Shown here: positions 5,331-11,316 of the stretch, in pieces
Numbering within the stretch: the stretch's first letter is position 1
How the letters are laid out: each line of letters begins with the position of its first letter
Source: Escherichia coli
GTDB taxonomy: Bacteria > Pseudomonadota > Gammaproteobacteria > Enterobacterales > Enterobacteriaceae
Direction: 5' to 3' (one strand)
NCBI RefSeq assembly: GCF_022846255.1
Contig: NZ_AP025682.1
Length of the DNA stretch: 64,000 bases
Program-made: the position numbers and the translations under genes
Notes under the pieces: model-generated
What the model saw: the letters and a program-made list of their open reading frames with translations, nothing else
What the model was told of the DNA's origin: nothing
The model's database searches: none

Positions 5331-6227
5331 ATGTTCATCTCAGACGAAACGCTTCGTGTTATTCATCTGGTCGCCAGACACCAGAGCATTACCACCGCAG
5401 CCGAGCAGTTAAATAAAGTCCCTTCCGCCATCAGTTACACCATCAAGAAAGCGGAAGAGAGCCTGGGCGTTGAACTGTTCATTCGTAAGGGACGCTATAT
5501 TGAATTATCGCCAGCGGGAAGTTACTTCATCGAACATAGCAAAACTATTCTTGGCGACCTGGAAGCATTAAAGCGCAACACAGTGCTGATTCACGATGGT
5601 ATTGAGCGTGAACTGACAATAGCGGTAAACAATATTATTCCTGGTGATTTGCTGGTGGCATTTATTCGAGATTTTGAACGGCAATTCACATCAACAACAC
5701 TGACGGTAGATCTTGAGGTATACAACGGCTGCTGGGATGCGCTGTACAGTAAGCGTGCTGATCTGGTCTACGGTGCTCCTCATGCAGTACCAAGCAGTGA
5801 AGGCATCATTAGCGAACCGGTCGGACAAATGGAATGGGATTTTGTCGTCAGCCCACTCCACCCACTGGCAGCGAAGCGGCATCCATTAGAAAACAGTGAA
5901 TTGCGTCATTATCCAGCGGTTTGTATCCGCGATACCTCCGTTAACTTCCCCCCGATGCAAGCCTGGTTGTTGGAAGGACAAAAACCCATTTTTGTTCCTG
6001 ACTTCGCTACGGCAATCGCCTTAATAGAACAAAACGTCGGTATTGGTTATATTCCACATCATCTGGCATTGCCGTTATTGAACAGCGGTAAATTGCTTAA
6101 AAAGCCAATGCGCGAACATAAACACGCCACCAAGTTATTTCTTGCCGCTCGTTCCGATGGTATGGGCAAAGCCTGTCAGTGGTGCATAGAATATTTAAGA
6201 AATCCGCAATTAATTTTCTGTTCCTGA
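5331..6227 (+). CDS. LysR-family transcriptional regulator
   Basis: N-terminal helix-turn-helix (ITTAAEQLNKVPSAISYTIKKAEESLGVELF) and LysR substrate-binding domain length. Confidence 0.85.
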   Translation: MFISDETLRVIHLVARHQSITTAAEQLNKVPSAISYTIKKAEESLGVELFIRKGRYIELSPAGSYFIEHSKTILGDLEALKRNTVLIHDGIERELTIAVNNIIPGDLLVAFIRDFERQFTSTTLTVDLEVYNGCWDALYSKRADLVYGAPHAVPSSEGIISEPVGQMEWDFVVSPLHPLAAKRHPLENSELRHYPAVCIRDTSVNFPPMQAWLLEGQKPIFVPDFATAIALIEQNVGIGYIPHHLALPLLNSGKLLKKPMREHKHATKLFLAARSDGMGKACQWCIEYLRNPQLIFCS

Positions 6228-6256
6228 AGATCCACATCATACCTGGCATACATAGC

Positions 6257-6286
6257 AAAATGGCTTCCGGTGTTGGAAGCCATTAT
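6257..6286. terminator. bidirectional hairpin between LysR gene and metE 3' ends
   Basis: 10-bp perfect inverted repeat AATGGCTTCC / GGAAGCCATT with 6-nt loop, A-run on one side and T-rich on the other. Confidence 0.45.
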
Positions 6287-6320
6287 TGTGCTGCAATTTA
6301 CAATGACTCGTTAATACTCA

Positions 6321-8582
6321 TCATCCCCGACGCAAATTCTGCGCCGCCTGCACCATGTTCGCCAGTGCCGCGCGGGTTTCTGGCCAGCCGCGCGTTTTCA
6401 GGCCACAGTCCGGGTTGACCCACAGACGCTCTGCCGGAATGCGTTTTGCCGCTTTCTTCAGCAAGGCTTCAATCCATTCCACGCTCGGTACGTTTGGCGA
6501 GTGAATGTCATAGACGCCAGGACCGATTTCATTTGGATAATCAAACTCTTCAAACGACTCCAGCAACTCCATGTCGGAACGCGAGGTTTCGATGGTGATG
6601 ACGTCTGCGTCCAGCGCCGCAATCGAATCCATGATGTCGTTGAACTCGCAGTAACACATGTGAGTGTGGATTTGTGTGTCATCTTTCGCCACGGCGGCGT
6701 TGATACGGAAAGCCTCCACGCCCCACTGGAGATAGGCATCCCAGTCGCTGCGACGCAGTGGTAAACCTTCGCGCAATGCCGGTTCGTCAATCTGAATGAT
6801 GCCAATTCCAGCGGCTTCCAGGTCCGCCACTTCATCACGCAGCGCCAGCGCAATTTGTTTGGCGATGGTTTCACGGCTGACATCTTCACGCGGGAACGAC
6901 CAGCAGAGAATAGTCACCGGGCCGGTCAACATCCCTTTCACCGGTTTATCAGTCAGGGATTGCGCATATTTTGCCCACTCCACGGTAATCGGTGCCGGGC
7001 GGCTAACGTCACCAATAACAATCGGTGGCTTCACGCAGCGGGAACCGTAGCTCTGTACCCAACCGTTTTGCGTAAAGACAAAGCCATCCAGATGCTCGCC
7101 AAAGTATTCCACCATGTCATTACGCTCGGCCTCGCCATGTACCAGCACATCCAGTCCCAAACGTTCCTGCTCAACAATGGCCTGCTTGATATGTTCCGCA
7201 ATGCCCGTGCGGTAGTTATTGGCGTCGAGATTACCCTTTTTGAAATCCAGACGCAGGGTACGAATCTCCGTGGTTTGCGGGAAGGAACCAATCGTGGTGG
7301 TCGGCCACGCGGGCAGTTTAAAACGCGCACGCTGGGCTTCAGCACGCACTTCATAGACATTCGCACGCTGACTGTCCTGAGCGGTGATCGCCGCCAGACG
7401 CTTTTCTACTGCCGGATTATGTACACGAGTAGAGTGACGACGCGCCTGAATCGGAGCGCTCCACTCTGCCAGAGCTGCCGTATCACCACTGTTCAGCGTA
7501 TCGCGCAGCAATGCCAGTTCATGACATTTTTGCAGGGCGAAGGCAAACCAGCTTTTCACTTCTGCATCAAGACGCGTTTCCACGCTCAGGTCGATGGGGC
7601 TGTGCAGCAACGAGCAGGAAGATGCCACCCACAAATCGCGTTTGCCGACAATGTCCTTAATTTGCGCATATTTCTCGGTAAGATCGGCGCGCCAGACGTT
7701 ACGACCATTGATAAGACCCGCAGACAGCAGCCAGTCAGAAGGCAGACGCTTGTGCAGTTCAGCAACGTCATCTTTACCATGTACGAGATCGACATGCAGA
7801 CCCTGAACAGGCAGCGCAGTAATCGTGTCGAGGTTTGGCGTTACGCCTTCAAAATAGGTAGTCAGCAGCAGTTTCACCTGCCCCTGCAGAGCATCGTAAG
7901 CGGGTTTGTACGCATCCAGCCACGCCTGCGGCAGTTCCAGAACCAGCGCGGGTTCATCAATCTGTACCCACTCGATGCCGCGTTTTGCCAGTTCTGCCAG
8001 CACTTGCTGATAAACCGGCAGAATGTCGTTCAGCAGGCTCAGGCGATCAAACTGTTCACCTTTCACTTTACCCAGCCACAGGTAGGTAACCGGCCCCAGC
8101 AGCACAGGTTTCACCTTGTGGCCCAGCGCCAGCGCCTCGTCCACTTCCTCCAGCAGCTGCGTCCAGGTCAGTTTGAACTGTTGGCCTTTAACGAACTCCG
8201 GCACCATGTAGTGATAGTTGGTGTTAAACCATTTGGTCATTTCCGCTGCCGCCGCAGGTTCGCCAGTCGGTGCACGTCCACGACCAATACGGAACAGGGT
8301 GTCGATATCTACCGAACCATCTTTGTTCTGGTGACGCGCCGGAACGTTACCCAGCAGCAGGCTGGTGGTCAGGACATGATCGTACCAGGCAAAATCACCC
8401 ACCGGCAGCAGGTCGATACCTGCTTGCTTTTGTTGATCCCAGTGACGAGCACGCAGTTCACGCCCTACCGCCAGCAGTTCTTCACGCGTGGAGTTCCCCG
8501 CCCAATAACTCTCTTGCGCTTTTTTCAGCTCGCGACGCAGGCCAACGCGAGGGAAACCGAGGGTGTGATTAAGAATTGTCAT
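6321..8582 (-). CDS. metE: cobalamin-independent methionine synthase
   Basis: 753-aa product matching E. coli MetE ([29 protein letters not shown]...). Confidence 0.97.
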
Positions 8583-8687
8583 TATATGCCCCTTATGGAA
8601 TTTTTAGTATTTAGCCGTCCAGATGTTTACACATCCATAATTGGCGGTTACTGTATATTCCTCAAGCGCAAATTATTCATGCCGAAG

Positions 8688-8700
8688 TGAAGGACTTTCA
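8688..8700. promoter_or_regulatory. candidate MetR box (TGAA-N5-TTCA) in the metE-metR divergent control region
   Basis: TGAAGGACTTTCA matches the MetR consensus as I recall it; adjacent degenerate tandem met-box-like octamers at 8621-8636. Confidence 0.35.
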
Positions 8701-9653
8701 TGATCGAAGTAAAACACCTGAAAACGCTACAAGCGTTGCGGAACTGCGGCTCACTCGCAGCCGCTGCGGCGACGTTGCATCAAACGCAATCCGCCCTGTC
8801 TCACCAGTTTAGCGATCTGGAACAACGCCTTGGCTTCCGGCTATTTGTGCGTAAGAGCCAGCCGCTACGCTTTACACCGCAGGGAGAAATCCTGTTGCAA
8901 CTGGCAAACCAGGTACTGCCGCAAATTAGCCAGGCACTGCAAGCCTGCAATGAACCGCAGCAGACGCGTCTGCGCATTGCCATAGAGTGCCATAGCTGTA
9001 TTCAGTGGCTGACGCCCGCATTAGAAAGTTTCCATAAGAACTGGCCGCAGGTGGAGATGGATTTTAAATCGGGCGTAACGTTTGATCCGCAGCCTGCGTT
9101 GCAACAGGGCGAGCTGGATCTGGTGATGACGTCCGATATTCTGCCGCGCAGTGGCCTGCATTATTCGCCGATGTTCGACTATGAAGTGCGTCTGGTGTTA
9201 GCACCTGACCATCCACTGGCGGCAAAAACGCGTATTACACCGGAAGATCTCGCCAGCGAAACGCTGTTGATTTATCCGGTGCAGCGTAGCCGACTGGATG
9301 TCTGGAGGCATTTTCTTCAGCCAGCAGGCGTCAGCCCGTCACTGAAAAGCGTCGATAACACCTTATTGTTGATTCAGATGGTTGCCGCACGGATGGGTAT
9401 TGCCGCACTACCGCATTGGGTGGTGGAGAGTTTTGAACGCCAGGGTCTGGTGGTCACCAAAACCCTGGGCGAAGGCTTGTGGAGCCGACTGTACGCCGCC
9501 GTGCGCGATGGCGAGCAGCGTCAGCCGATTACAGAAGCGTTTATTCGTTCAGCGCGCAATCACGCCTGCGATCATCTGCCGTTTGTGAAGAGCGCGGAGC
9601 GACCCACTTACGATGCACCCACAGTGAGGCCAGGATCACCAGCGCGCCTGTAA
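8700..9653 (+). CDS. metR: LysR-family methionine regulator MetR
   Basis: 317-aa product matching MetR ([45 protein letters not shown]...). Confidence 0.95.
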
Positions 9654-10440
9654 TAAACGTTGGCCAGTGCGGCTGTTGGTGCCAGATAGCCAGGTTTACC
9701 AGCAGCCCTGCCGGAACGTGCATATTATTCATAATGCCCAGCGTTCCGGCGTCCACCTGCGTCGCGCCGTAGTTCCACATAAAGTAGCCAATCCCGGAAG
9801 CCACCACGCCAAGAAACACCAGAATGCCCCATTGCAACGTGGTTTGCGGCATTTTCTGCGCATTTCCCAGCAAGAACCATGCAATCACTGCCACCAGGAA
9901 CGCGCCAAGATAGAACCACGCAAAGGCGTTATGCTGCGGCATCGGGCGAGTTTCCATCAGACGTTTGTAACCCACCATGCCGATGGCAAAAGTGATATTG
10001 GAGAGTTGCACCAGCAATAAGCCAGTCCAGAAATGGTCGGTGACCTGATCATAGCGAATAATCCCGGCACCAATCACCGCCAACAAGGCGCTAAAAGCAT
10101 AGCCCCAGCGCAGACGGCGCTTACTCATGATGTCATAAATCAGCGTGATGTAGAGCGGCGTCAGTACGGTGAACAGCAACAGTTCGGAGACCGTCAGGTA
10201 GAGATAGGCGCGGAAACTCAGCATATACATCACACCGAGCTGCATCGCGCCCACCAGCATACACAGGCCAACCGTTTTCAGGCTATTGCCACGGGTGCGC
10301 AGAAACGGCAGAAAAACGAGTGCCGCCAGACCAACGCGCACCAGCACCGCAAAATAGCTATCGACGTGCCCCGCAAGGTACTCGCCATAAAAGCTAAAGG
10401 AGAAGGCCCACAGAATCGTGGTGATGATAAGTAGCGCCAC
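9541..10440 (-). CDS. yigM: EamA/DMT-family inner membrane transporter YigM (biotin transporter BioP)
   Basis: ORF 9541..10515; start placed at in-frame GTG giving about 299 aa as I recall for K-12; 3' end overlaps metR 3' end convergently. Confidence 0.8.
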
Positions 10441-10515
10441 AATGGAAAACTCTTTGATTAACGAGTATCCATTGTAGCGAAGTATCAGGTTGACAACTGA
10501 CCAAATAAAGAACAA

Positions 10516-11316
10516 TTACGATAAATAGAGCTTACGCAGATAATGCGGCACTGCGTCTTCGGCGTTAGTACCAATCACTTCCAGCTCTGGATGCAGATCT
10601 TTCAGCCGTTGATGCGCGCTGCCCATAATGCAGCCTTTCCCCGCCATCGACAGCATTTCGGCATCGTTCATTCCATCGCCAAAGGCAATACAATCTTGCA
10701 GGCTGTAGCCCAGTTTCTTCGCCACCGCTTCCAGCGCATGGCCTTTTGAAACGCCGCCCGCCATCACTTCCAGGCAGGTTAAGGTAGAGAAACTGACATT
10801 GACGCGATCTCCCCAGCGAGCGTTAATCGCCTGCTCCAGTGGCAGAAGTTTTTCATGGGAATCGCAGGTGAAGAACACTTTGCTGACGCCTTCCGGCTCC
10901 AGCAATCCCGGCTCATACAGCGCATATTTGAACACCGCTTCTTTAAAAAAGCGCATCTCTTCCGGGCGATGGCGATTCATAAACCATTCGTCGTCGCGAT
11001 AAACGTTAGTAATGATGTCCGGATTGTCGTTGACTACGCCAAACAGGTCACTGGCAATGTCGCGATCCAGGTTATGAGCAAAAATCAGGTTGCCATCGAG
11101 GTCGTGAACGCGCGCGCCATTGGAGGTAATCATGTAAGACTTAATCTCCAGATTATCGCGAATTTGCCCCACATCAACGTGGTGACGACCGGTCGCAAAC
11201 ACAAAGTTGATGCCGCGCGCGGTGAGCAGCTTCAGAGTTTCTTTGGCGTAAGGGGATAACGTATGGTCGGGAGAAAGTAACGTGCCATCTAAATCAGACG
11301 CAACAACCTGGTACAT
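10516..11316 (-). CDS. yigL: HAD-family sugar phosphatase YigL
   Basis: MYQVVASDLDGTLLSPDH... 266 aa from internal ATG of ORF 10516..11442; 7 nt downstream of pldB stop. Confidence 0.9.
   Translation of the reverse strand: MYQVVASDLDGTLLSPDHTLSPYAKETLKLLTARGINFVFATGRHHVDVGQIRDNLEIKSYMITSNGARVHDLDGNLIFAHNLDRDIASDLFGVVNDNPDIITNVYRDDEWFMNRHRPEEMRFFKEAVFKYALYEPGLLEPEGVSKVFFTCDSHEKLLPLEQAINARWGDRVNVSFSTLTCLEVMAGGVSKGHALEAVAKKLGYSLQDCIAFGDGMNDAEMLSMAGKGCIMGSAHQRLKDLHPELEVIGTNAEDAVPHYLRKLYLS

Follow-up and report, generated by a model that had tools for sequence, protein, structure and literature searches.

The closest described counterparts of the region considered here are the metE-metR regions of Escherichia coli K-12 and Salmonella Typhimurium, which likewise carry two MetR sites and a shared MetJ operator. 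MetR recognizes the motif TGAA-N5-TTCA across the proteobacteria, and metE and metR form the core of its regulon (PMC4239095). Phylogenetic footprinting of the E. coli spacer has delineated two MetR dyads, a better conserved one (IR1) at -63 and a weaker one (IR2) at -41 from the metE start, with the consensus ATGAA-N5-TTCAT; the same paper states that these two sites lack experimental demonstration in E. coli (PMC5002191). Salmonella MetR footprints, as cited in PMC5002191, comprise two tandem sites with the consensus TGAAnnTnnTTCA. On the side of MetJ, the K-12 metR/metE operator is listed in the supplement of PMC3228920 as agccgtcc agatgttt acacatcc, with a total of 21.08 bits; 63 bp separate its end from the metR start. 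In vivo, metE of K-12 rises on metJ knock-down, and MetR activates metE in minimal media (PMC10505187).

We examined the corresponding locus in a 64-kb stretch of E. coli DNA, referred to below as the window. Positions 8583-8699 very probably constitute the shared control region of the divergent genes metE and metR, and would contain the MetJ operator together with two MetR sites. This control region is already known, and the present copy is neither a new member nor a variant of it. Its importance would extend little beyond correct annotation, namely that the strain appears to retain the textbook dual control of methionine synthase by MetR and MetJ. What the analysis does provide are fixed coordinates in the window for the MetJ operator and both MetR sites (Table 1).

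Table 1. Coordinates of genes, putative regulatory sites and candidate expression signals at the metE-metR locus of the window.
Feature	Coordinates	Strand	Sequence or size	Basis and remarks
metE coding sequence	6321-8582	minus	753 aa	Cobalamin-independent methionine synthase; ORF list and annotation of matching E. coli genomes
metE-metR spacer, short ERIC-free allele	8583-8699		117 bp	Alignment to K-12-like strains (spacer 236 bp)
metE Shine-Dalgarno sequence, short allele	8589-8594	minus	AAGGGG	Sequence; GCCCCTT motif common to leaders lacking ERIC in many genera
MetJ operator, three tandem met boxes	8613-8636		AGCCGTCC (8613-8620), AGATGTTT (8621-8628), ACACATCC (8629-8636)	Identical to the K-12 operator of the PMC3228920 supplement; top tandem met-box score in the window
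Candidate metR -35	8626-8631	plus	TTTACA	Inside met boxes 2 and 3; invariant in all relatives
Predicted metE transcription start (within 1 bp)	8631	minus		Published IR1 centre (-63; PMC5002191) set on 8694; equals MG1655 4012885
Candidate metE -10	8637-8642	minus	AATTAT	Position relative to the predicted start; ATAAT invariant across Enterobacterales
Candidate metR -10	8649-8654	plus	TACTGT	17 bp from TTTACA; 5/6 columns invariant; TA[C/G]TGT in distant Enterobacterales
Candidate metE -35	8660-8665	minus	TTGAGG	17 bp from the -10; 5/6 columns invariant in 72 sequences
Putative MetR site 2 (low affinity)	8666-8680		GCGCAAATTATTCAT	Abuts the metE -35; ATGAA on the metE strand is its one good half-site; corresponds to published IR2
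Putative MetR site 1 (high affinity)	8687-8701		GTGAAGGACTTTCAT	Core TGAA-N5-TTCA at 8688-8700; shares bases with the Shine-Dalgarno sequence and start codon of metR; corresponds to published IR1
metR Shine-Dalgarno sequence	8690-8694	plus	AAGGA	5 nt before the ATG; read from sequence
metR coding sequence	8700-9653	plus	317 aa	LysR-type regulator; ORF list and annotation of matching genomes

Identity and Conservation of the Locus

A 501-bp query spanning the spacer found matches in 5425 of 5426 complete E. coli genomes, every one of them annotated as metE/metR, with one match being 100% identical; the region thus has annotated metE/metR counterparts in E. coli at 100% identity. K-12 MG1655 served as the reference for the operators (metR 4011863-4012816, metE from 4013053, spacer 236 bp). 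Window positions 8610-8729 are base-for-base identical to MG1655, and the whole of the difference between the two spacers lies beside the metE ATG, outside the operators. An earlier note on this DNA, made from the sequence alone, had read the spacer as holding the known dual MetR/MetJ control elements of metE and metR and had proposed alignment with the K-12 control region as a check. For the operator part that alignment is positive, and the identity with K-12, taken together with the published sites, argues for the reading. Wherever the sequence-level features of the MetR-site and MetJ-operator classes can be tested, they are present.

Conservation was surveyed in 80 Enterobacteriaceae loci, with one genome per species. 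The 113 bp upstream of and into metR yielded 70 distinct sequences, whose alignment to window 8600-8712 required no indels, and the addition of Salmonella enterica and Klebsiella pneumoniae brought the set to 72. In these 72 sequences, 56 of the 87 spacer columns at 8613-8699 are invariant, as against 4 of the 99 third-codon positions of metR; the spacer thus appears to be under purifying selection. Because the spacer is highly conserved as a whole, single sites within it are only modestly resolved by conservation. In four more distant Enterobacterales (Rahnella, Dickeya, Yersinia and Pectobacterium) the blocks AGATGTTTACACATCCATAAT, ACAAGCGCAA.TT.TTCA and GTGAAGGACT[T/C]TCATG are kept, while the intervening sequence has diverged. 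An Rfam search of 6000-11000 found no RNA family, so that nothing in this interval points to a riboswitch or small RNA in the leader.

Downstream of metE lies a gene for a further LysR-type regulator (5331-6227, 298 aa), adjoining a gene annotated as a cytosine permease in matching genomes. Of 5426 complete E. coli genomes only 1553 have the segment 5200-6320, some copies being plasmid-borne, and it is therefore regarded as accessory DNA flanking metE. At the opposite end of the locus, metR overlaps by 113 bp at its 3' end (9541-9653) with a convergent minus-strand ORF at 9541-10515, which encodes an EamA-type transporter. The ORF overlapping the metR 3' end in K-12 is bioP, and the same overlap is found in the K-12 annotation (4011863-4011975).

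The MetJ Operator

The published K-12 24-mer was placed at 8613-8636, where it is identical, and its distance from metR agrees with the published one (8700 - 8636 - 1 = 63). A met-box weight matrix was constructed from 26 boxes belonging to eight further operators of K-12, the metE/metR operator having been left out. Under this matrix the boxes score 6.81, 9.40 and 4.35 bits, respectively, and the triple, at 20.56 bits, is the top tandem met-box score in the 64 kb, the next best elsewhere reaching 9.3. Matches to the consensus AGACGTCT number 6, 6 and 5 of 8, a total of 17/24 that is again the best in the window. By the weight matrix 0.01 such segments would be expected per shuffled window, and the expectation across the two scores spans 0.01 to 0.07.

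The earlier note had proposed tandem MetJ met boxes at 8621-8636. These octamers do lie there and correspond to boxes 2 and 3 in the published K-12 operator; box 1 was missed, and the pair that remains is near chance. On their own, boxes 2 and 3 match 11/16 consensus positions, and 12 such matches occur in the window versus 11.1 expected from shuffles; by the weight matrix they reach 13.75 bits, with 0.44 such matches expected per shuffled window. Without box 1, then, the pair is statistically indistinguishable from background. The weight-matrix scan for MetJ sites, also suggested in that note, places the metE-metR operator at the top of the window once box 1 is included.

The behaviour of the pair, along with the weakness of box 3, is what might be seen if the octamers were a chance resemblance and MetJ repressed metE and metR indirectly or by way of another site. 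We regard such an explanation as highly improbable. The three-box segment is the window's best by both scores and is the operator listed for K-12 (PMC3228920 supplement). Boxes 2 and 3 are, moreover, unchanged as far out as Yersinia and Dickeya; box 2 has 7 of its 8 columns invariant in the 72 sequences, and box 1, the most variable of the boxes, is nearer the consensus in Salmonella (GGACGTCT) and in Klebsiella (AGACGTCC). The rise of metE on metJ knock-down in K-12 points in the same direction.

Extensions of the operator and other locations were also considered. The in-phase octamers at 8605 and 8637, which would supply a fourth and a fifth met box, score negatively under the weight matrix. 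Within the metR coding sequence, the stretch AGCCGACTGGATGTCTGGAGGCAT (9288-9311) resembles met boxes and matches 16/24 consensus positions but scores only 9.1 bits, within the range of shuffled sequence. Both candidates were rejected.

The MetR Sites

The sequence TGAAGGACTTTCA occupies 8688-8700, its final base being the A of the metR ATG, and is identical in K-12 MG1655. It fits 8/8 specified positions of the MetR consensus, and the 15-mer around it (8687-8701) fits 9/10 of the extended form and is the sole match in the window to ATGAA-N5-TTCAT at one mismatch or fewer. The MetR box that the earlier note had placed here, reaching the metR start codon, has proved to be exact: it is the only TGAA-N5-TTCA in the 64 kb and coincides with published IR1. 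The count is unremarkable by itself, since shuffled sequences give a mean of 1.19. The location is more telling, in that a lone match would land in the 117-bp spacer with a chance of about 0.2% by our own arithmetic.

Conservation of site 1 requires cautious interpretation. In the 72 Enterobacteriaceae sequences 14 of its 15 columns are invariant, the sole variable column (8696) being among the central five bases, and the site persists in Rahnella, Dickeya, Yersinia and Pectobacterium, where CTCA replaces TTCA. AAGGA, the Shine-Dalgarno sequence of metR, sits within site 1, which accounts for the near-invariance of the central bases; because this signal and the start codon both overlap the site, its conservation cannot be credited to MetR binding alone. 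One might go further and suppose that the block is conserved only as the ribosome-binding site and start codon of metR, the dyad being incidental and MetR binding elsewhere in the spacer. Central bases that a dyad-binding protein would not need are indeed almost invariant, AAGGA is placed 5 nt before the ATG, and the motif is no more frequent in the window than chance predicts. We nevertheless judge this account improbable. Both half-sites fit a MetR consensus drawn from further members of the regulon and from other taxa (PMC4239095, PMC5002191), LysR-type regulators usually have their primary binding site at -63, as here, and a second motif bearing a half-site lies about two helical turns (21-22 bp) nearer the promoter. 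Roles in translation and in MetR binding are, besides, compatible rather than exclusive, and we retain site 1 as a putative MetR site.

The second motif, overlooked in the earlier note, is probably the weaker second MetR site. Read on the metE strand it is ATGAATAATTTGCGC, with one good half-site, and the centre of the 15-mer falls at about -42, versus -41 published for IR2 (PMC5002191). Site 2 lies 21 bp from site 1 and, with three mismatches to the MetR 15-mer, is too degenerate for a consensus search to recover. Its half-site columns are nearly invariant in the 72 sequences, and variation is seen at 8672, 8673 and 8675, which are three of the five columns at its centre; fixed half-sites around a variable centre are the pattern expected for a dyad whose centre is not contacted. 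The MetR footprints in Salmonella reportedly run from -48 to -71 and from -24 to -47. These limits would map to 8679-8702 and 8655-8678, consistent with both MetR 15-mers.

The gap between the two sites (8680-8687) varies among genera: it is one base shorter in E. coli, Salmonella and Klebsiella (TTCA-TG) than in Dickeya, Yersinia and Pectobacterium (TTCACTG). The shorter spacing of E. coli was remarked upon in PMC5002191.

A further 15-mer, at the metE start codon (8568-8582), was considered as a MetR site and rejected. It reads ATTAAGAATTGTCAT in this strain versus ATTCAATATTGTCAT in K-12, and has two mismatches, a level at which the window holds 26 matches against 30 expected.

Candidate Promoters and Proposed Regulation

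With the metE start placed from the published IR1 position, candidate hexamers could be assigned to both promoters (Table 1), and the candidate metR -10 implies a metR transcription start near 8661. A simple consensus promoter scan over a 300-bp stretch did not report these metE and metR hexamers. Its lone sigma-70-like site, on the minus strand from 8701 to 8672 (ATGAAA, 18-bp spacer, AATAAT), is directed towards metE and overlaps both MetR sites; 0.4 such sites would be expected from shuffles in 300 bp, and the promoter that the published positions imply is a different one. The MetJ operator covers both the predicted metE start and the candidate metR -35.

A regulatory scheme may be proposed from this arrangement, for which sequences, K-12 identity, statistics and conservation come from the present analysis, the binding and regulatory activities of MetR and MetJ from the literature, and the transcription starts and hexamers from prediction. 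With methionine in good supply, MetJ carrying S-adenosylmethionine would bind the three met boxes cooperatively. The boxes would extend from about -5 to +19 at the metE promoter and would also take in the -35 of the metR promoter, and because they cover both, a single operator could shut off the two genes. Under methionine shortage, as homocysteine builds up, MetR would occupy site 1, at about -63 from the metE start, and cooperatively fill the weak site 2, at about -42, where it would touch the metE -35. MetR bound at both sites would then recruit RNA polymerase, and metE would be transcribed leftwards from about 8631. The same occupancy is predicted to lower metR transcription, a form of autoregulation, because both sites lie between the predicted metR start and the metR ATG.

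Two Forms of the metE Leader

The one substantial departure from K-12 concerns the metE leader. That of K-12 contains about 119 extra bases holding an ERIC core, within which the standard ERIC1R and ERIC2 primer sequences are matched at 15/16 and 17/18 positions, respectively. These bases are absent from the present strain, and it is for want of the ERIC element that its spacer is 119 bp shorter. The operator consequently lies 30 bp from the metE ATG in the strain versus 149 bp in K-12, and distances to the metE ATG measured in K-12 are inapplicable to this strain and to most E. coli. The predicted leader is 49 nt long here and 168 nt long in K-12. The Shine-Dalgarno sequence of metE also differs, being AAGGGG in the strain versus GAGGAAG in K-12.

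Both forms are common. The long ERIC leader occurs in 2100 of 5425 complete E. coli genomes (approximately 39%), with the short form in the rest (approximately 61%). Among 79 related Enterobacterales loci with a locatable metE start, 41 have short, ERIC-free leaders sharing the GCCCCTT (Shine-Dalgarno) motif; the remaining 38 are long, and 35 of these have the ERIC core at the same place. Given the occurrence of both types at so many loci, the two forms evidently persist across genera. A literature search for ERIC elements tied to metE or metR found no relevant paper.

MetE is among the most abundant enzymes of the cell in minimal medium. Hypothetically, the short leader and the long, ERIC-bearing one might differ in mRNA stability or in the translation of metE, a suggestion that we advance as a tentative and rather doubtful one. 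Were it true, data on regulation obtained in K-12 would not be fully transferable to ERIC-free strains.

Comparison with Known Systems

The present region shares with that of K-12 its three met boxes, their distance from metR, the MetR dyad and the arrangement of site 1 and site 2. Among other MetJ operators, those of metA, metBL/metJ, metF, metC, metK and metNIQ are likewise each built from two to four 8-bp repeats that are related to AGACGTCT, contiguous and in phase. The metE-metR operator differs from these in serving two divergent promoters at once, and its boxes are fairly degenerate.

The divergent regions gcvA-gcvB and ilvY-ilvC, also governed by LysR-type regulators, likewise combine a strong dyad near -63 with a weaker one near -41, beside the -35 of the target gene (PMC5002191). 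In regions of this type the regulator's own promoter is overlapped, giving autorepression, as in metE-metR (PMC5002191). What sets metE-metR apart from other LysR-type regions is the MetR-specific motif TGAA-N5-TTCA, the use of homocysteine as co-activator, and the presence of a second regulator, MetJ, sharing the region.
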